DNA of 64,000 nucleotides, from positions 384,001 to 448,000 of the forward strand of contig BK006939.2 of the NCBI GenBank assembly GCA_000146045.2, in the 5' to 3' direction. The notes beneath the pieces were generated by a model, which did no database searches, was not told the origin of the DNA, and saw only the letters and a program-made list of their open reading frames with translations. The DNA is from TPA_inf: Saccharomyces. Taxonomy: Eukaryota. The position numbers were made by a program, and so were the translations under genes. Below, piece after piece: positions 3,796 through 56,971 of the stretch (the first letter of the stretch is position 1; every line of letters begins with the position of its first letter).

Positions 3796-3931
3796 ACAAA
3801 TTTTGTATTATAATAATTATGTACATATATAAATATATTGGTACATATGTACTGTGTGTGTATGTGAATGTTGATTACCGTTTTCTTTAAAAAAAGCTTT
3901 TCTTCTTTTTATTACCGAGCTTTCCTTTAGT

Positions 3932-6052
3932 TTACAGGTTGACTTTCTGGTGGTATATTTTATTTATAAACCATGAAGCCGTTAAGTAACTTAATGCGCC
4001 AAGCCCTAAACTGCACATTACGTTGAAGATTAAACTATAACAAATGGAAATTAAGATAGATGAAAACCCATGGATGTTTAGCACTGCGAAAATGTAATAT
4101 AGCGAATACAATTCCATATATACACCACCGCTAAATCCCATTTCAAAGCACTTCCATCTCCAATTGTTGCGAACCACCTTATCTTCGAAGCAAAATCTCA
4201 TTAATAAATAACTTCCAATAATTGATATCTCCATAGTTAACACGCATAATAGTATGATACTCAAAAAAAGGAATCCGTAAAAATAATAAAATGTAGTTTT
4301 CTCCAACCAGAGAGATTTGTAAACGTATTGCATTTCCACGTAAATTACTAACAAGGGGAAAATACCACATAAATAAATGCCGCAGTAAACCAACGGGTTG
4401 AACTTGGCTCGTGATTTAGGTACAAATAATCCATTGCCATCGCTATTGCTTTCATCTTTAGTAATTCCACTCAACCAATATTGAGGCAAAGGTATATTAT
4501 TAGCTACAATACCACCAAACAAGCTGAGTGGTATACAGACGATGAAATAAATGCTCATGAAAAACACAATAGTCTTGAATGGTAATGCACTTGTAGAATC
4601 ATGTGCCCAAACAATACTATTTAATAAAAATGTGCTCACCATTACAATGCCAGGTAAGCTGGACCCACAAAGTATCGTAAAAATGGGACTAAACTTCTTG
4701 TAGTCTTTGAGGTATCTGTTATCGTCAAGGTAATTGGCCTTGGTTCTTTTCGTTTTCGTTACCATACTGAGTCTTGTCCCTACGAATGATGCCATGAATG
4801 CTCCAAGTACGAAAAATAAAATGGCCATAGTTAGCACACTGTTTCTTACATTATGCAATTTGTTCATTGAACATGATATCGTTAAGGATCCAATTATGGT
4901 AAATAAAAATTGCACCCCAAATGAGACCAGAAGGATTAAAACTTTTAAACCAAATAAATTTGGTCTACCATTTTGTATCCAGTCTTTCGCCACCGTGTAA
5001 ACGGAGTATTTACCATACTTGTCATCGTCCAGGTCATCCTCTGTTTCAATTCCTTCTATATTTATCATGTATTTGGGGGACTTTGAATTACTTTTATCCG
5101 TGTACATGACTCGTACGTAAATAATAAGCGTGATAAATGAGATGGACAATACAATTCCCACTGAATTGGCTAAGCTCATCCAATGAAACTGAATGCTCTG
5201 TTCGTCAGATAACTCACCTGCGTTCAAGAAATAATCCCATCTATGATTCCAGTCTACTTCAAATTCTTCCCTCCAATATACGGAGTAAGTAAATGGCAAA
5301 TATGTCAACTCATTTTCATCCTCAGGAATGACTATTTCGTATTGTTCGTAGTTCTTCGATGCCCCAGGACAATGATAATCTGACACAGATCTTGGATATA
5401 CTTCAAAGCCGACTATGGTATTTTTATCATTATCACTGGCATGAAAACGTATTACCAGCATTACGTGATTATGCAGATAGGTTTTATCTGTATCAGGATC
5501 TATGAAACCTAAAGGAAACCCAGATGCATAATATTTTTTATGATCAGTGGTGGAAATAAAGGTAGTGGCAGCCGGCAATTCATCATCAATTAGCCATTGT
5601 ACGACGTATCCCTCCCTGACTAACTTGTCTAAGGTCTGCATGCCCTCTTTGGTAGTTTTCCGGGCACACAACGTTTCACATGGATTGTCTTCGCCAAATT
5701 TGAGTTTATAGTCGCTTTCCCATTTCCTATCCCCTCTTATTATTTCGTTTAGAGATAAATGAAGCGGTTTTTTATGCATAGTAGGAGGACAAGTGAAGGG
5801 CAAGTCATAATATGCGTATGGCAATTGCGTTAAGTCAGATTCTACCTTATTCACAATCAATTCCAAGGGATCACCCTTTCTATAGAAATTGGGTGTTATC
5901 CACCCGTCATAAAGATTCTTTTGGCTGGAGGAGATGACTGGTTCCTGCCCATGCCCTCGCGTTCGTGATGAGTAGAACTGGTTTCTGAGGATGAGCATCA
6001 CGACTACTATCGCCATGAGTGTTATGACCGACCTCTTTGGTCTTACTCTCAT
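3932..6052 (-). CDS. TMN3: Transmembrane 9 superfamily (EMP70/nonaspanin) protein.
   Basis: A 706 aa ORF with a large lumenal N-terminal domain and nine C-terminal hydrophobic segments. Its length and position after LSM4 match TMN3. Confidence 0.85.
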   Translation of the reverse strand: MRVRPKRSVITLMAIVVVMLILRNQFYSSRTRGHGQEPVISSSQKNLYDGWITPNFYRKGDPLELIVNKVESDLTQLPYAYYDLPFTCPPTMHKKPLHLSLNEIIRGDRKWESDYKLKFGEDNPCETLCARKTTKEGMQTLDKLVREGYVVQWLIDDELPAATTFISTTDHKKYYASGFPLGFIDPDTDKTYLHNHVMLVIRFHASDNDKNTIVGFEVYPRSVSDYHCPGASKNYEQYEIVIPEDENELTYLPFTYSVYWREEFEVDWNHRWDYFLNAGELSDEQSIQFHWMSLANSVGIVLSISFITLIIYVRVMYTDKSNSKSPKYMINIEGIETEDDLDDDKYGKYSVYTVAKDWIQNGRPNLFGLKVLILLVSFGVQFLFTIIGSLTISCSMNKLHNVRNSVLTMAILFFVLGAFMASFVGTRLSMVTKTKRTKANYLDDNRYLKDYKKFSPIFTILCGSSLPGIVMVSTFLLNSIVWAHDSTSALPFKTIVFFMSIYFIVCIPLSLFGGIVANNIPLPQYWLSGITKDESNSDGNGLFVPKSRAKFNPLVYCGIYLCGIFPLLVIYVEMQYVYKSLWLEKTTFYYFYGFLFLSIILLCVLTMEISIIGSYLLMRFCFEDKVVRNNWRWKCFEMGFSGGVYMELYSLYYIFAVLNIHGFSSILISICYSLIFNVMCSLGLGALSYLTASWFINKIYHQKVNL

Positions 6053-12810: not shown

Positions 12811-13281
12811 GTATGTTAAAACCGAAACAAGTGGAAATACCCATTTAAATCACACAAGATGTCGTCAATCAACAAATAAAAAAGTATATTCCCGAGACTG
12901 AATGTTACAATTGAGACAAGCAATGTTCAAGAAATGTGGGAGTCTATCAATGAATATAGTGGATAGCCAAAATGGAAGATGCCAAATTTATCCTTAATGG
13001 CTTCTCCATGCCTACATCCAGATAGCGAAATCTACTTCTGGGCCTTAAAGCGTTAAATGGATGCCTTTCCAACTGATTACTGAGAAGGTTACTTTTGTTA
13101 AGACTATTGGAAGTTCTATGCGGAATATACAAACTCCAAAAATGTCCAATTGTTGTAAGATCATTTATGTCCAAGAAATATATTTGTGTTGATGGTTCCA
13201 TTCTTGCCAAGATAGGATTGATTTACTAACAGATTAATTGTGTGCTCATTTTTATGTGTCACTTACATTTTTTTTAAATAG
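12811..13281 (+). other. RPL23B: RPL23B intron (471 nt).
   Basis: GTATGT at 12811, TACTAAC branch point at about 13222-13228, and the AG acceptor ends at 13281. Joining the exons reconstructs the conserved uL14 sequence ...[17 protein letters not shown]. Confidence 0.9.
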
Positions 13282-13653
13282 TTAGGTTTACCAGTTGGTG
13301 CTATCATGAACTGTGCTGACAACAGTGGTGCCAGAAACTTGTACATCATTGCCGTCAAAGGTTCTGGTTCTAGATTGAACAGATTACCAGCCGCCTCTTT
13401 AGGTGACATGGTTATGGCCACTGTTAAAAAGGGTAAGCCAGAATTGAGAAAGAAGGTTATGCCAGCTATTGTTGTCCGTCAAGCTAAGTCTTGGAGAAGA
13501 AGAGACGGTGTCTTTTTGTACTTCGAGGACAATGCTGGTGTCATCGCTAATCCTAAGGGTGAAATGAAGGGTTCTGCCATTACTGGTCCAGTCGGTAAGG
13601 AATGTGCCGACTTATGGCCAAGAGTTGCTTCCAACTCTGGTGTTGTTGTTTAA
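13282..13653 (+). CDS. RPL23B: RPL23B exon 2 (ribosomal protein L23/uL14, 137 aa in total).
   Basis: [27 protein letters not shown]...SNSGVVV followed by a stop codon. Confidence 0.9.
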
Positions 13654-37114: not shown

Positions 37115-38446
37115 TCATAAGGAAGCGTGAGTTTTAACGTGCTGATTCAAATTATCGCTTCTGCTGAAGTTCTTATTACAGATATGGCATGTAAATGGTT
37201 TTTCGCACATATGTAAAGATCTGACATGCCTCTTCAAATGCTCTTGTCTTTTAAATCTTCTATCGCAAAATTCACAACCAAATTGCTTGGAAGCGTCCGG
37301 AATTAAAGAGGGCTTCCTTCCGCGCGTCTTCTGCATGCTTCCTGTCTTCTTCCTCACCACTAAGCCATGAGAAGAAGAGGAAGATTGTACTGAAGGTGAT
37401 GGTGCAGAAGGAGAAGGAGAAGAGGATGGTTCTGATATGGCAGCCAATAAGTCCTTTCTCGAATCATTGCTGAATTTTGAAACTGGCTCAATCATCTTAA
37501 AATCACTGCCAGACTTAAATGGATTCGTTGTCTTAGCAATGCTTTGAGTAGAGATATCCTTGTTATTTCCCACCAGCTTTAACGGATTTATTATCGCGTG
37601 GTCACTCTCATCACTTTCTTCATTAGAGGAAACATCAAACCCTGAATTTATAAGCACTTCATTTTCTTGCTCAAGAGGAAGAGACTTGATTAGAGTGCTT
37701 TTCCTACTTCTGAAGAATCTATTTTTGAACATTTTCTGCGAGGAAGAGTTTTCGGTCTGAATGGGTTCACAACCAAGGCTATTACTGTTATTATTACTAC
37801 TGCTACTACTGCCGAATATGTTTAATTTGAAATAGTCCCTAACTTTTTTTTTAGATTGGGGCACAGTGGTAAAAGAGTCTTCAAGCTCATCGTCAATGTT
37901 TTCCGTTGGATCTATTATAAATTCATGTATCTCCAGATTTTTCAAGTTATTAGTACTGGAAATCCTGTTCAGCCCGTCAAGAGGCTGTTGCTTGAGAAAG
38001 GAAAATCTTTCATTTACCTCCAACTCGTCGTCGCTAACCATCAATACATCACTTTCATTATTTAGATCGATGTCATCATCATTTTCTACGATGTCGTTAT
38101 TAAATAATGGTTCGTTAAGTTCCCTCCTACCAAAAAACTCGTATTCGTAGTAGTTACCGTTTTCGGTACGATAGTCGGATATCGAAAGCCTTCTCTCCAA
38201 CTGATTTGATGAAGTAGCTGTAGTTACACAATTGTCGACAATAGTATTGCCTGTTAGATCGTTGATAATTTCTACATTATTATTGTCAATTTCCTTGGCA
38301 TTGGCGTTGGCATTTGGTATGAGTTGAAGGGTAAAATGTTGCTTGTCGTTATTGCGGCTTTCGTTAAACAGCTCAGTCTTAGAATTCAAAGTGTAACTGA
38401 AAACCGTGTCATTTGATTCAAATCTTTGTAAAGGGTATAAAGACAT
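37115..38446 (-). CDS. COM2: Com2 C2H2 zinc-finger transcription factor.
   Basis: A 443 aa ORF with two C-terminal C2H2 fingers ([24 protein letters not shown] ... [23 protein letters not shown]). Confidence 0.8.
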
Positions 38447-39951
38447 GCTTGTCTGTCTATGTTATCGTAAAGCTTTATTTGTCCCTGGATAGTTTATGAA
38501 GTCTAGCAGGCCTACTGTACAAATTCAAAACAGAAAATCATCATCTTGCTCGAAGCCAGCCCATGCTACCTATGGCTCTCAGTCGCCCATTCAGCTATCT
38601 ATATATATCTTGGATGGCCACGCTAGGAACCGCGCCGGGCAACAACTTGGGCAAAAGCCCTCGGAACAGTAAAAGCCACCTTTCCGTGGGTTATCCGCTG
38701 AAATTTTTTGCTCCATTTCCGAAGCGTCGCACTCGTAACCGTAAATGTAAAAAAACAGCACCCAATTGGGCCATGTGTGATTAACGCCGGGCGGCTATGC
38801 ACGTTTGAACAAGTATATCCGCATGGAGCAACAACTGCTATAAGAAATTCCGTCAGAGAAATGGCTTGACTTGCTGCAAGCACAGAGGTGTTTATGGATA
38901 ATATGTATACAATAACCTCATAGGTGTTTGGCAGTGTGAATTCACTGTTCCCTGCGTTCCCGGAATGGAGAAAGGGGTATGACAGGCGCCAAAAAAAAAA
39001 AACACTGAAAAACAAGAGAAAAGAGTAAAGGAGATGGCTTGAATATAATATTTATTCCTTGCTAAGTTTAATAGCGTATTTTCTTATATTAATTCCGTGG
39101 ACGATCAGATGCGGGAATACAATGTTGGCAGTTATCTGTTTCATCGCTCCCTCCTTGCGTAAATATCGAACCTTCTATCATTCGATAATCAAGAATTAAA
39201 ACTGACAGCCGCGCCTTTTCGGCATCTTCTGGGGTTGATCAAAATTATAATAAGAGGACTGCTGCATATTTACCTCCGTACACCTTCTACACCCAACCTT
39301 ATTATGGGGCCTACTAAATTTTCTTTTGAGAAGAATTGCGTTCTTTTCATCGTGTTGTGTTTTTTTGAGATCTTTCGCGCGATGGCATCTCACATTCGCA
39401 GTTTGCATGAAATTTCAGATAGTATTGACAGCATTCGATCGTGCACCGGGAAATAACGCTAGGCGTCTATCGTAACATAACAGAGTGTTTTATTATCTAT
39501 ATAGTGATATTTACCTTAAATTCTTGCTCTTAAGCGTGTCTCAATTTACTTTCAAAAAGAAAGATAAATACACATAATCAAACAGGAAAAGTATGTTATA
39601 AGAGCGAATAATGTGATAAAGGAGCAAAGTGGAAGGAAAGAATTATAAAGAATGACGTTGCCGTAAAGCCAATTTTTCAACCAACAAAATTGCAATAGTT
39701 TCAAGCAAATTATGGTGTGTCCGGGATTGGCGGTAGTAAATTGTAAAACAATAGCTGGTCAATAGTTGATATTCATACCGACACTATAATCCACAAAAGA
39801 TGGGTGACATTGATGGCTGAAATGGTAGAGGCAAGAAAATTTTTTAAAGCAATAAGGCATAGACGTTTCTATTAATCCTTTGTTTTATTCAGTATTTTCG
39901 ATATTTCCTCTTTACTAACTTCAATTTACTGAATTTGTATGTAATTTTTAG

Positions 39952-40311
39952 ATGCCAAAAAAGAGAGCTTCCAACGGTAGAAACAAGAAGGGTAGAGGTC
40001 ACGTCAAGCCAGTGAGATGTGTTAACTGTTCCAAGTCCATTCCAAAGGATAAGGCTATCAAGAGAATGGCTATTAGAAACATTGTTGAAGCTGCTGCCGT
40101 CAGAGATTTGTCCGAAGCTTCTGTCTACCCAGAATACGCCTTGCCAAAGACTTACAACAAGTTGCACTACTGTGTCTCCTGTGCTATTCACGCCAGAATT
40201 GTTAGAGTTAGATCCAGAGAAGACAGAAAGAACAGAGCTCCTCCACAAAGACCAAGATTTAACAGGGATAACAAAGTTTCTCCAGCAGCTGCCGCAAAGA
40301 AAGCTTTGTAA
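39952..40311 (+). CDS. RPS26B: Ribosomal protein S26 (eS26).
   Basis: A 119 aa [42 protein letters not shown]..., which is conserved eS26 sequence. Confidence 0.9.
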
Positions 40312-40699
40312 ATATGATGAGAGAATAATATAAATCAAACGCTCGCTGATTAAGGTGTCATTTATTTTTTTTAATAGAGGCTTTGTCTTTTATAATTGTG
40401 TATTTTAATAATATGATTATAGTATATTTTCAAGAATAGAATTTTTGCGCATGTAACTTCGTTCATACTCAATTCACAGTAGGCAGCTGTATTTGTATCC
40501 GTACTACTGGCGTACGTGCGATGAATTAATCGTATCCTACGGCACCTTGTAAGCAGTCGAGAAATTTTTTTTTCACTTTTTCCTTTTCATACCTATATAA
40601 ATAGAAGTGTTCTTGTCGATTTGAAGAAGGTTTATTTCGTTTCGCTGTAGTTTTTTTGTCATTGATCTTTTCATTTTTTTATTTCAAAATCCCCATCAA

Positions 40700-40885
40700 C
40701 TATTACAGTCGATGAGGATAGGTTATAGTTCATGTGTAACATCTGTGTTTTAAAATAACTCTAGTTATCCGGGGCGTTTTTCACAAAGTTTGTGTAAGAT
40801 GCTTTCCTGGGTCGATGTGGATTGTGCCGTGGCCTTTTTCACCACCTTTATAGCGGTGCTTTAACTATTAATAACTGAGGCTGTA
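40700..40885 (+). ncRNA. Candidate box C/D-type snoRNA between RPS26B and PMD1 (possibly SNR4).
   Basis: A strong TATA box (TATATAAATAGAAG, about 40595) lies upstream. A box C-like GTCGATGAGGA sits near 40712 and a CTGA box D-like motif near 40877 (AACTGAGG), with complementary flanks (CAGTCGATG ... ACTGAGGCTG). I recall a snoRNA gene somewhere in this interval but cannot verify the sequence. Confidence 0.3.
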
Positions 40886-41187
40886 TTTTGAATTCTTACG
40901 TAAATCTTGGAATCTATGGAGCATCCAGTCTCACCTGGGTTGGCTCTGGTAACGCATGACTTGGTATGAAAAAATTGTTTTAATTTGACGAGGAAATTTT
41001 GGCATCCGTGAAGTTCAATACTTCCTTAAGTATTGGTTTTCAAAAAAAAAAATTCTAAAATTCTAAAATTCTTCTATTATACCAAAGTTATAACGTCTAT
41101 AAATATCTATAACTGAAACCTGTTTTGTCATAATACCTTGTTTTAGTTGTGCTTTTTTTTGCTTTATCTGGATATTATCTAATATGT

Positions 41188-44100
41188 TTATCTTCGTTTA
41201 CCGAAAAAAGGAAATGGGGCAATATTATCGTTATCATTTGTAGTTGCGTCTTCTTTCCTATTTGTTCTGTTGGCAGTCGCTGATCTATCCTCACAATGCC
41301 CTTCACTCTCCTTACGTCCAGTATTCACTGCAGAAGGCATAAAGGCAGGATTCATGAATAGAGCAGATGTGGAATGTGTCGTCTGAGTACTGAATCTTTT
41401 ATTCATATGTTGTCTCCGTTGTTGAGATGCAGTGAAATCTGTAACGGAAGTCCTAGGTGAGATCTGAGTGGAAGGCGCCTGTGAGAATTTGATGGACGAT
41501 TTCCTGAATCCCTCCGAGATCGGGGAACTTGATGCAAATTTTAAAGCTGGTCTTGTATTTTCTTGCTGTTTTAACGGTGTCGCGACATCAGAGTGCTGCC
41601 TACTTAGAGTAGGAGAAGAAGATCCGCGTGCAAAAATTGGTTTTCCAGTCTCTCTCATTTCGTCATCCATTTGTGAAATGTCTTGTAATACCTTTTTTTT
41701 TAACTTTTTCAAGACTTTGGATAATTCGATTGCTTCCTTCGTGCGCGTCATCAAGTTACTGTCATTAACCAATACAGAAGTTCTATAAATAGACTTCATG
41801 ACATAGTCGACAGGTGGTAGTGCATTGGGTGAGACCATATTTTCCAGGCTAGATATATTAACATATTCCGAACCATCTTCTCTTTGTGAATTAGGTCTAA
41901 TGTATTTGGAAAATGATCCATGTAATCTTGAAGAGCCTGGAGTGCTGGATCCTATTTTATATAAAGGATCAATAGAATCATCAAATTCTTGAGATGTCTG
42001 CTCCTGTAATTTTTTATTCATTTTTGTGAAAGGCAAAATACCTAGCTGTGAATCAAGGTCATCAGAATCAGAGCGGAAGGAAGAACCTGAATCACTATCA
42101 AAACTATCACGAATAAACGGGTCTGTCTCTAAATTGGATGAGTTTTGAGGTATTTCTGTTCCTCTGTTCTTCAATGGATCATTAGTGCGGTCTAAATCTT
42201 TCCCATCGTTGCTGTTTCTCTTTTGCAACGTTTCAACCTTGTATTTATCGAAGTTCGAAATGTCCTGGAGCGTAGCTTGTTCGTTTTGTTCCTCTTTATC
42301 GTCCGAAGCTCTGTTTGACTTACTAGAGTCCAAATTTTGGTAATTATATCTCGTAGGTTCTGTGGGAACTGTTTCAGTAAAACTACTACTTCTTCTTGGA
42401 AAGTTCTGTTGCCGGCTGACTGGTCCACTATCAGGAACATCATCAGTAAATTGATCGGAGGTATCTAATGGATCTGTTTCCCTACTTAAGCTGGATTTCT
42501 TCTTCGTCGCTGGGCTAAATAAGGACACAGAGCGGCGAATATTTTGAACACCCGAATTACTGGGGAATGCAATTGAACCAATCGAATTATGGCTGTCTCT
42601 AGGACCACCGGCAAAAACAGTAGGAACAGCCCTATTGGCAAGCGATCCTATGCTAGAAATTCCCGTGTGGTGCATATCTATTTCGGTTTCTCCATTACTG
42701 TCATCCGTGTAGTGTATTGATTGCGCCATTGAAGTGTTTCGCAAAAGATATGAATCAACGTATCCGTTGTCTATATTGGCTAGGGAACGTTTTATCTCTA
42801 AGGTGTCCTGATATGATTCGCTAGAATCCAACTGCTTTCTTATTTTGCCCTCATTTTCATTGCAATATCTCGAAACCTTTTGCTGGAACAGATTTAGTAG
42901 TGCTTCGCAAGTAACTGAAAGACCTTCTTCCTTTTTGCTGATTATCTTATACAGCACTTCTGTAATCAGTTCGTATAAAATTGGAATTTCGTATATTTTA
43001 GCCATGATAAGCAGGTCCAGGGTCACAGGAGCTAATAGCCATTTGCCATTAATTTGTGCGGTGTAAAAGAACTCTGCAAATGCTCTTACAGAGGCGGTCG
43101 ACCAAGGCATATACAATGATCTCGGGGTTAATAAGGGTTCTAACTCGATTATGGCGTTATTGTTCGAATTTGTACTTTCTACACTTTCAGGGTTTGAAAT
43201 GTAAGAAAGTCTTCTACTCTTTTCATTATTAATATATGATTTTGAAGAAAAAAATTCACCTTCTTTGAAATTGCCGTTTATATTGATTGCATTAATGGTG
43301 GAAAAGATGGGCCTTATATTGGAAGGTGAGATACAGCCGTAGTCTTGATTGTCCCCATCTTCCTCTTCATCTCTTCCATTGTTCATGCCATATTCTTGAA
43401 TACTTGCTTCGTAAGGAATGTCACTGCCATAACTATTACTTAGCAGTTGCGAATCTAGAGTATTCCTCAGCAAAGAAGAGTTAGAGATACGCCTTGCATC
43501 CGAGGAGCTCGATTTTCTGGTGGAATGAGAAGACCTTCTTGACGCGACTGGACTATCCCTACCAAATTGAACGTACTCCGCCAAGGAACTGCTTCTTCTT
43601 GAGGGTGCTTTTGGCACCGGCGGTAGTGGTTCTAGTGGGATCTTTTCTTGTGGGGGTAATGGGATATTCAACACAGGCAAGATAGGCGAGTTTGGTAAAC
43701 TTGCAGAGCTTCCTAAATGAGAAATTTGGTTAGAGTTGCGCCTTCTTCCTGAAGTAGAACTTACAACAGAGGCAGTGCTGGCAGTAGATGCAAATGAAGT
43801 CTGTCGCGACTGATTTGGACTTGCTATAAACCTTAATGCGGATGATTTTCTACGTGAGAAAGCTTTTTCCGCGGGACTAGCCTTTGATATACTACTGGGT
43901 GAAGATTTGGCTATAATGTAAGATTGAAGAGGGTGTGAGGCTCTCCGAATGGATGAAAAGCCGTCATCTACCGAACTATTCGTGGTGGTTCCCACTGTGG
44001 AAGCTCGCCTATAAACTAAAGGTGTATTGGAAAGTGTACAATTGCTATCATTACCATCGTTAGTTGATTTTTTATATACCGGAGGAGGTGAAACAGAGCT

Positions 44101-47489: not shown

Positions 47490-47822
47490 TGAAGAGTGGG
47501 TGAATTTTGAGATAATTGTTGGGATTCCATTTTTAATAAGGCAATAATATTAGGTATGTAGAAAGTACTAGAAGTTCTCCTCGAGGATTTAGGAATCCAT
47601 AAAAGGGAATCTGCAATTCTACACAATTCTATAAATATTATTATCATCATTTTATATGTTAATATTCATTGATCCTATTACATTATCAATCCTTGCGTTT
47701 CAGCTTCCACTAATTTAGATGACTATTTCTCATCATTTGCGTCATCTTCTAACACCGTATATGATAATATACTAGTAACGTAAATACTAGTTAGTAGATG
47801 ATAGTTGATTTTTACTCCAACA
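47490..47822 (-). repeat. Solo delta (Ty1/Ty2 LTR), about 333 bp, abutting the SNR52 promoter.
   Basis: The reverse complement begins TGTTGGAGTAAAAATCAACTATCATC and ends ...CCCAACAATTATCTCAAAATTCACCCACTCTTCA. It has a TG...CA terminus and is near-identical to canonical delta, including CTCCTCGAGGA. Confidence 0.85.
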
Positions 47823-48671: not shown

Positions 48672-49196
48672 GTATGTTAATGTTGAACTTCGCAGTCAAG
48701 AGATAGAATGCCTAGAGCTTCAGGTGTTTTATGTGTTCTACTCCTGTTGCGGCAGTAAGATAGTTACAGCAGTTATTTCCGTTTGACTGAAAGAATTTAC
48801 CAAGCATCTGATGTTAGCCTACTCATATGTCGAGATAGCCGAGATAATGTGTGTGTTTAGCTCTTCATTTTTCTATCTTATTAGGCATTTTTTTACCAAG
48901 ATTTCCTTATGTTTTGTATCATCATCCGGCCGGCGCCTCCCATATTCAGAAAAATCCCCCTTGCTCACACTAAAAAAAGAAGGCATTTTTTCGTTATGAA
49001 GAAAACGAATCTTTTTTTTTTTTGAGCCCGAGAGAAAGGTCGGACGAAAACCAAGAAATGTGGATTTGCAGAAGGCATTGGGAGAAATGAAGCGTTTTTG
49101 ACAGCAGTAATTGTTCTCTTAAAGTCAACGGAATGAGCTAGATTTAGTGACAAATTCATTTACTAACTTATTTTTTTCTATTTTTTTTTTTTTTAG
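48672..49196 (+). other. GLC7: GLC7 intron (525 nt).
   Basis: GTATGT 5' splice site, TACTAAC at 49161-49167 and a poly-T...TAG acceptor ending at 49196. Splicing restores the PP1 motif ICGDIHGQ. Confidence 0.95.
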
Positions 49197-49958
<762 letters not shown>

Positions 49959-55615: not shown

Positions 55616-56971
55616 ATGGATCAAGAAACAATAGACACTGACTACGACGTGATTGTCTTAGGTACCGGTATTACCGAATGTATCTTATCTGGTTTACTCT
55701 CTGTAGATGGAAAAAAGGTATTACATATTGACAAGCAAGACCATTATGGTGGCGAAGCTGCTTCTGTGACCTTATCTCAATTGTATGAAAAATTTAAACA
55801 AAATCCGATCAGTAAAGAGGAACGGGAGTCCAAGTTTGGTAAAGATAGAGATTGGAATGTCGACTTAATTCCTAAATTCCTGATGGCCAATGGTGAGCTG
55901 ACAAATATTTTAATACATACCGATGTGACCAGATATGTCGATTTCAAGCAAGTTTCTGGCTCCTACGTTTTTAAGCAAGGCAAAATTTACAAAGTGCCAG
56001 CTAATGAAATAGAAGCCATTTCATCGCCATTGATGGGTATTTTTGAAAAACGTAGAATGAAGAAATTTTTAGAATGGATTAGCTCTTACAAAGAAGATGA
56101 CTTGTCCACTCATCAAGGATTAGACTTAGACAAGAATACCATGGATGAAGTGTATTATAAATTTGGGTTAGGCAATTCTACCAAAGAATTCATCGGTCAT
56201 GCAATGGCTTTATGGACCAATGATGACTACTTACAACAACCTGCTAGGCCATCGTTTGAGAGGATTTTGTTATATTGCCAAAGTGTTGCCCGTTACGGTA
56301 AATCACCTTATTTGTATCCTATGTATGGGTTAGGCGAACTTCCACAAGGATTTGCTCGTTTGTCGGCTATTTACGGTGGTACTTACATGCTAGACACTCC
56401 AATTGATGAAGTATTGTATAAAAAAGACACAGGAAAATTTGAAGGGGTCAAGACTAAGCTGGGAACTTTCAAGGCCCCATTGGTTATTGCTGATCCAACT
56501 TATTTTCCCGAAAAATGTAAATCTACTGGTCAAAGAGTTATTAGAGCCATCTGTATTCTTAACCATCCAGTTCCGAACACCAGTAACGCGGATTCTTTAC
56601 AAATTATTATCCCACAAAGCCAACTGGGAAGGAAAAGCGATATATACGTTGCGATTGTTTCAGATGCGCATAACGTTTGCTCCAAGGGTCACTATTTAGC
56701 AATTATTTCTACAATCATTGAAACTGATAAACCACATATAGAATTAGAGCCTGCTTTCAAACTTCTGGGACCAATCGAAGAAAAATTCATGGGAATTGCC
56801 GAATTATTTGAACCAAGAGAAGACGGCTCTAAGGATAACATTTACTTATCCAGATCATACGACGCATCCTCTCATTTCGAATCCATGACTGACGATGTTA
56901 AAGATATTTACTTCAGAGTAACAGGCCACCCATTAGTTCTAAAACAAAGACAAGAACAAGAAAAGCAGTAA
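55616..56971 (+). CDS. GDI1: Rab GDP-dissociation inhibitor.
   Basis: A 451 aa ORF, MDQETIDTDYDVIVLGTGITECILSGLLSVDGKKVLHIDKQDHYGG..., with the FAD/GDI fold. Confidence 0.9.
   Translation: MDQETIDTDYDVIVLGTGITECILSGLLSVDGKKVLHIDKQDHYGGEAASVTLSQLYEKFKQNPISKEERESKFGKDRDWNVDLIPKFLMANGELTNILIHTDVTRYVDFKQVSGSYVFKQGKIYKVPANEIEAISSPLMGIFEKRRMKKFLEWISSYKEDDLSTHQGLDLDKNTMDEVYYKFGLGNSTKEFIGHAMALWTNDDYLQQPARPSFERILLYCQSVARYGKSPYLYPMYGLGELPQGFARLSAIYGGTYMLDTPIDEVLYKKDTGKFEGVKTKLGTFKAPLVIADPTYFPEKCKSTGQRVIRAICILNHPVPNTSNADSLQIIIPQSQLGRKSDIYVAIVSDAHNVCSKGHYLAIISTIIETDKPHIELEPAFKLLGPIEEKFMGIAELFEPREDGSKDNIYLSRSYDASSHFESMTDDVKDIYFRVTGHPLVLKQRQEQEKQ

Follow-up and report, generated by a model that had tools for sequence, protein, structure and literature searches.

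Spliceosomal introns in the 5'-untranslated regions (5'UTRs) of yeast genes have been collected in a 24-gene table (Table 1, PMC3226532); for the RPS26 family it lists RPS26A (YGL189C), with an intron at -378..-11, and RPS26B (YER131W), with an intron at -361..-1, chrV 423591..423951. Talkish et al. 2019 (PMC6726248) likewise count the RPS26B intron as standard and label it 'Ares intron'; their S1 Table ('Standard introns') places it at chrV 423590-423951 (0-based start) on the plus strand, with a length of 361 nt, distances of 328 from 5' splice site to branch point and 33 from branch point to 3' splice site, and the signals GTATGT / TACTAACT / TAG. It further appears in construct work: RPS26A and RPS26B were cloned 'and introns' by Segev and Gerst, and Frumkin et al. 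put 'the natural intron of RPS26B' into YFP, with the donor at 0, the branch point at 328 and the acceptor at 361.

The DNA analysed here, a window of 64,000 nt, is a piece of S. cerevisiae chromosome V; adding 384,000 to a window coordinate gives the chromosome coordinate published for RPS26B features. At 39591-39951 on the plus strand (chrV:423591-423951) it carries a 361-nt arrangement of splice signals, which the original prediction, made from the sequence, had put forward as a candidate 5'UTR intron of RPS26B. Taking the annotation table, the junction reads and the orthologues together, we regard it as very nearly certain that this feature is the 5'UTR intron annotated for RPS26B (YER131W), and that it is spliced constitutively and with high efficiency. 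The supposition that came with the prediction, that RPS26B has no annotated intron, is wrong, the intron being listed in Table 1 of PMC3226532; and of the two readings offered, an overlooked intron or a coincidental arrangement, neither holds for an annotated intron with 41,886 junction reads. There is nothing new in its existence: the reference annotation includes it, as does each of the genome-wide yeast splicing datasets consulted.

The gene downstream of the intron is identified by its product: the 119-residue open reading frame (ORF) at 39952-40311 (plus strand) is an exact match to Rps26b (RS26B_YEAST) and matches full-length homologues of the eS26 family (PF01283), and it is contained entirely within a single exon, exon 2. 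On either side lie ORFs on the minus strand, upstream one of 443 residues for a zinc-finger protein and downstream one of 1753 residues for a Kelch-domain protein. About 390 nt beyond the stop codon of RPS26B, at 40698-40883 (plus strand), is the known gene for the C/D-box snoRNA snR4, matched by Rfam over its full length (222 bits, E = 2.9e-50).

The intron opens with the consensus 5' splice site GTATGT at 39591-39596 and closes with a T-run and the 3' splice site TAG at 39945-39951 (T-run 39945-39949, TAG 39949-39951), the acceptor AG at 39950-39951 directly abutting the RPS26B ATG at 39952; between the two lies the branch-point sequence TACTAAC at 39913-39919, in which the A at 39918 is assigned as the branch nucleotide from consensus and geometry. 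Direct reading and a motif scan agree to the base with the prediction on donor and branch-point motif, as does the acceptor; the predicted length of about 361 nt is exactly 361 nt and matches the published table, and the predicted distance of about 30 nt from branch point to AG had the geometry right, though counted from the branch A to the last base of the acceptor AG it is 33 nt. This acceptor is the first AG 3' of the branch point, so that TACTAAC stands at a workable distance upstream of the first usable AG, and the boundaries (GTATGT...TAG) are those of a standard S. cerevisiae spliceosomal intron of the GT-AG type. The intron lies wholly upstream of the ATG, its AG ending at -1, and the first exon carries no ATG, as expected of a 5'UTR intron: the 3' end of this non-coding exon, ATAATCAAACAGGAAAA at 39574-39590 (plus strand), is conserved in a 4-species alignment, and a scan of the candidate first exon (39520-39590) found no ATG. 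The intron itself contains eight ATGs. A second GTATGT, read directly at 39937-39942 (plus strand) between the branch point and the 3' splice site, is not the donor of this intron, as had been predicted; the junction reads use 39591.

Further upstream, a block nearly invariant in the 4-species alignment, GGGAAATAACGCTAGGCGT at 39448-39466 (plus strand), presumably has a promoter function. A pattern scan finds within it, at 39459-39465, the sequence CTAGGCG, which we take to resemble the IFHL-type ribosomal-protein (RP) promoter motif; it is the only such match, the strict Rap1, Abf1 and TATAWAWR patterns having zero matches in 39000-39591. The TATA-like element that had been predicted near 39507 is present, as CTATATAGTG at 39498-39507 (plus strand), with 39507 as its last base, but it does not conform to strict TATAWAWR. 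Its TATATAG is kept in S. kudriavzevii and degenerate in S. eubayanus and S. uvarum, in contrast to the conserved ATAGTRATATTTACCTTAAATT next to it.

Reads joining 39590 to 39952, which had been named as a check on the prediction, are abundant: Talkish et al. 2019 (S1 Table, PMC6726248) count 41,886 across the exact RPS26B junction. These reads, joining 39590 to 39952, imply transcripts that begin upstream of 39591. The junction is thereby documented from published RNA-seq tables, not from new data. Counts of 23,351 and 15,408 before rapamycin fall to 1,740 and 1,387 after 60 min (PMC6726248), a drop that fits, as expected, with the repression of RP genes. Read mapping from the paralogue RPS26A is an unlikely source of these counts, because the 5' exons of the two genes differ. 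In the supplement of a 2025 DMS-MaPseq study, the retained-intron fraction of RPS26B rises from 0.0185 in untreated cells to 0.564 with pladienolide B, an inhibitor of SF3B1; removal of the intron is therefore efficient and depends on the spliceosome. In a heterologous YFP context the intron is poorly spliced, according to Frumkin et al., as compared with about 98% removal in the native gene, and its efficiency thus depends on context. A search of JGI metagenome and metatranscriptome contigs for the junction sequence, ATCAAACAGGAAAA joined to ATGCCAAAAAAGAG, returned 0 matches.

Two minor junctions accompany the main one in an NMD-deficient strain. A donor of sequence GTAGAG at 39825-39830 (plus strand) is joined to the same 3' splice site (chrV 423824-423951, 79 reads, 'downstream_shared_with_Ares'; Talkish S2 Table, PMC6726248). 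A 71-nt junction inside the RPS26B coding sequence, at 39977-40047 (plus strand), has 33 reads in a published 'filtered reads' table. Among the RPS26B rows listed from the Talkish tables, none uses the second GTATGT at 39937-39942.

Within S. cerevisiae, 10 strains are 99% identical over the region and all splice signals are invariant, the second GTATGT included. A T-run in the intron at about 39684-39688 reads TTTTT in the window and TTTT in the nine other strains, in which the intron is therefore 360 nt long as against 361 nt here, the allele given in the S288C-based tables; an A/G polymorphism is found among the strains at about 39827-39828. For the other Saccharomyces species, syntenic loci were fetched, with the zinc-finger gene on one side of each and the Kelch gene on the other, and positions were taken relative to the ATG: the donor GTATGT and the branch-point motif TACTAAC are at -362 and -50 in S. 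kudriavzevii, at -396 and -43 in S. eubayanus, and at -394 and -43 in S. uvarum, each of these loci having exactly one GTATGT and one TACTAAC and ending the intron in TTTAG/ATG. In an alignment of five species (S. cerevisiae, these three, and the published S. mikatae intron) the GTATGT donor and the TTTAG/ATG junction are invariant, and a single TACTAAC is present in all orthologues; the GTATGT/TACTAAC pair, whose absence from sensu stricto orthologues had been named as an argument against the intron, is thus kept in all five. Identity to S. cerevisiae in this alignment is 0.75 in the donor block and 0.70-0.80 in the branch-point and acceptor blocks, and 0.32-0.50 across most of the interior; conserved signals around a drifting interior are the signature one would expect of a functional intron without internal functional elements. 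Spliced reads are also available in two other species, where junctions are flagged 'exact_match_RPS26B' (S. mikatae, 350 nt, 149 reads; S. bayanus, 399 nt, 415 reads; Talkish S6 and S7 Tables, PMC6726248). On the conservation that separates standard introns from protointrons, the RPS26B intron falls with the former: its signals are found in S. mikatae, S. kudriavzevii, S. eubayanus, S. uvarum and S. bayanus, with splicing seen in two of them. Of the five Saccharomyces species compared, S. cerevisiae alone has the second GTATGT; S. mikatae, S. kudriavzevii, S. eubayanus and S. uvarum lack it and show GTATTT instead, which points to a recent addition in the S. cerevisiae lineage.

The bare arrangement of motifs would by itself leave room for coincidence, that is, for splice-like sequences fallen by chance into the RPS26B promoter or leader, with transcripts starting downstream of 39596 and never being spliced. 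When GTATGT, followed by TACTAAC within 40-1000 nt and by AG 10-60 nt further on, was scored on both strands, such arrangements occurred 1.33 times per dinucleotide-shuffled 64-kb window, and at least once in 74% of shuffles; for any one start codon, about 1.7e-4 arrangements are expected to have their AG within the 15 nt preceding it. The window contains five. Those at 12811-13281 (plus strand), just upstream of the main coding exon of RPL23B (a 115-residue ORF at 13306-13653), and at 48672-49196 (plus strand), just upstream of the main coding exon of GLC7 (a 224-residue ORF at 49284-49958), are presumably the known introns of these genes, their acceptor positions being approximate. Those with donors at 3860 (3860-4385, plus strand, downstream of LSM4 and antisense to a 706-residue ORF) and at 55920 (55920-55421, minus strand, antisense to the 5' end of GDI1) are probably chance occurrences, because about 1.3 are expected per window; with them, at least two arrangements lie antisense to genes or outside them, in favor of a coincidental reading of the one at RPS26B as well. 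The bare arrangement is thus weak evidence, and transcript data and conservation settle the question. They do so against coincidence: 41,886 reads cross the exact junction, the unspliced form builds up under inhibition of the spliceosome, the signals are invariant in five species while the interior has drifted, and the intron is annotated. We consider a chance arrangement vanishingly improbable and reject it on the junction reads. Three TACTAAC matches on the minus strand, at 47796, 52251 and 59707, have identical downstream spacing and lie in near-identical repeats beginning TGTTGGAATA...ATCAACTATCATCTACTAACTAGTATTTAC, which we take to be copies of the Ty delta LTR; these repeats inflate the count of TACTAAC in the window.

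Other readings accept the intron and give it a further role. It might be mainly regulatory, with Rps26 protein or the paralogue RPS26A feeding back on its splicing, as has been reported for yeast RPL30, RPS14B, RPS9 and RPL22 and, in vitro, for human RPS26; PMC5748985 cites cross-regulation through introns between duplicated RP genes of yeast, and both RPS26 paralogues have kept their 5'UTR intron since the genome duplication. Against this, retention in the native gene is just 1.85% of reads, which leaves little room for steady-state repression, and a stable structure that could mimic a protein-binding site is missing: the intron folds with a minimum free energy of -68 kcal/mol, as compared with a mean of -69.6 for shuffles (z = +0.29), and the table of the 2025 DMS-MaPseq study calls neither a zipper stem nor a stem between branch point and 3' splice site, the longest in-vivo stem having 5 bp. 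With its poorly conserved interior, the intron thus departs from the structured autoregulatory type of RPL30 and RPS14B, and a literature search found no published report of such feedback for yeast RPS26. We therefore reject a structured autoregulatory intron, since the fold resembles that of shuffled sequences, the interior has drifted and retention is about 2%, and we consider a mainly regulatory role improbable. Several yeast RP-gene introns host snoRNAs, and snR4 lies close by, only some 390 nt past the stop codon; a non-coding RNA such as a snoRNA within the RPS26B intron is nonetheless exceedingly improbable, as the sole match of an Rfam scan at E<=1 over 38400-41200 is snR4 (40698-40883), which lies outside the intron; the intron folds no better than shuffled sequence, and its interior is of low conservation. 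A host role is rejected on these grounds. Very doubtful, too, is the proposal that the second GTATGT (39937-39942) acts as a decoy for U1 or tunes the second step of splicing, or that Rps26 feeds back on the splicing of its own intron; were it true, the second GTATGT could be part of why the intron splices poorly in a foreign gene, and could make the splicing of RPS26B respond to competition in a lineage-specific way.

For the constitutively spliced 5'UTR intron, which is the reading we prefer, a course of events can be laid out with the snRNP recognition steps of the standard yeast splicing mechanism. RNA polymerase II would start in the short non-coding exon ending at 39590; U1 snRNA would pair with GUAUGU at 39591; the branch-point binding protein (BBP), followed by U2, would recognize UACUAAC, with the branch A at 39918; and the first AG downstream, at 39950-39951 and 33 nt away, would serve as the acceptor. 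Ligation would then join ...AACAGGAAAA to AUGCC, yielding a short leader without an upstream AUG; in the joined sequence exon 1 supplies all of positions -1 to -4, each of them an A. The unspliced RNA would instead present eight upstream AUGs and a U-rich context, for which reason splicing would be needed for efficient synthesis of Rps26b, and transcripts retaining the intron are likely to be poorly translated. Ferretti et al. 2017, as summarized in a review, describe Rps26 as favoring mRNAs with A at -4; the AAAA/AUG formed by splicing (39587-39590 joined to 39952) would therefore put RPS26B mRNA into the class favored by its own product. This context is common in highly expressed yeast genes, and its occurrence here is probably not significant.

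The paralogue, with which a comparison had been proposed, indeed also has a 5'UTR intron: at the S. cerevisiae RPS26A locus GTATGT is found at -378, TACTAAC at -71 and AG at -11, in agreement with the published entry. The two introns thus share gene family, 5'UTR location and the consensus signals GTATGT and TACTAAC, with lengths of 368 nt in RPS26A and 361 nt in RPS26B; they differ in that the RPS26A acceptor stands 10 nt upstream of the ATG, whereas that of RPS26B abuts it. Their 5' exons are unrelated in sequence, and only a weak similarity is left between the introns (z of about 2.9 in a global alignment, relative to mononucleotide shuffles). In S. eubayanus, the RPS26A orthologue SEUBUCD646_0G00920 is annotated with 126 residues and an N-terminal extension, MSFRSFK, and translation of the sequence conserved in RPS26A, ...tcatttag/atcattcaaaATG, gives ...SFRSFKM; the extension thus appears to continue across the 3' splice site of that gene's 5'UTR intron, suggesting an error in the gene model that arose from ignoring the intron.

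Species that branched off before the whole-genome duplication were examined in the gene order COX4-RPS26, their introns being predicted from motifs. In Z. rouxii and a second Zygosaccharomyces assembly, GTATGT is at -74 and TACTAAC at -21, with cag/ATG at the acceptor; the corresponding values are -208, -19 and tag/tATG in Lachancea mirantina, and -416, -65 and cag/aATG in K. marxianus. The post-duplication Naumovozyma dairenensis has GTATGT at -496 and a branch motif AACTAAC at -65. Because Zygosaccharomyces, Lachancea and Kluyveromyces carry these signals, the RPS26B intron appears to be older than the whole-genome duplication. The geometry in which the acceptor abuts the AUG, found in Zygosaccharomyces and nearly so in Lachancea and Kluyveromyces, appears to be ancestral as well. 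In C. glabrata, whose RPS26 locus is syntenic with RPS26B, and in T. delbrueckii, no donor of the GTAYGT type and no branch motif of the ACTAAC type was found within 1 kb upstream of RPS26; with both motifs absent, the intron has presumably been lost there, which suggests independent losses.

Set beside the RP-gene introns described as autoregulated, those of RPL30, RPS14B, RPS9A/B and RPL22B, the RPS26B intron likewise belongs to a duplicated RP gene and lies at the 5' end of the transcript; the former, however, bear structures bound by their own protein, whereas in RPS26B none is detectable either in silico or in published in-vivo probing, and retention is about 2%. Among the listed rows of the 24-gene table (PMC3226532), the only other intron whose AG abuts the start codon is that of RPL32 (YBL092W; -333..-1), also the 5'UTR intron of an RP gene and of similar length, but in an unrelated gene on a different chromosome. 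As a discovery the result carries little weight, its novelty being nil because the intron is known and annotated, and the fresh details are minor: the apparently ancestral acceptor-AUG geometry, the apparent loss in C. glabrata and T. delbrueckii, and the extra GTATGT of the S. cerevisiae lineage. It is useful as a calibration, in that the donor, branch-point and acceptor signals by themselves sufficed to reconstruct an intron with single-base accuracy: it coincides with the SGD-annotated five_prime_UTR_intron of YER131W/RPS26B, being identical in coordinates, 361-nt length, donor, branch point and acceptor.
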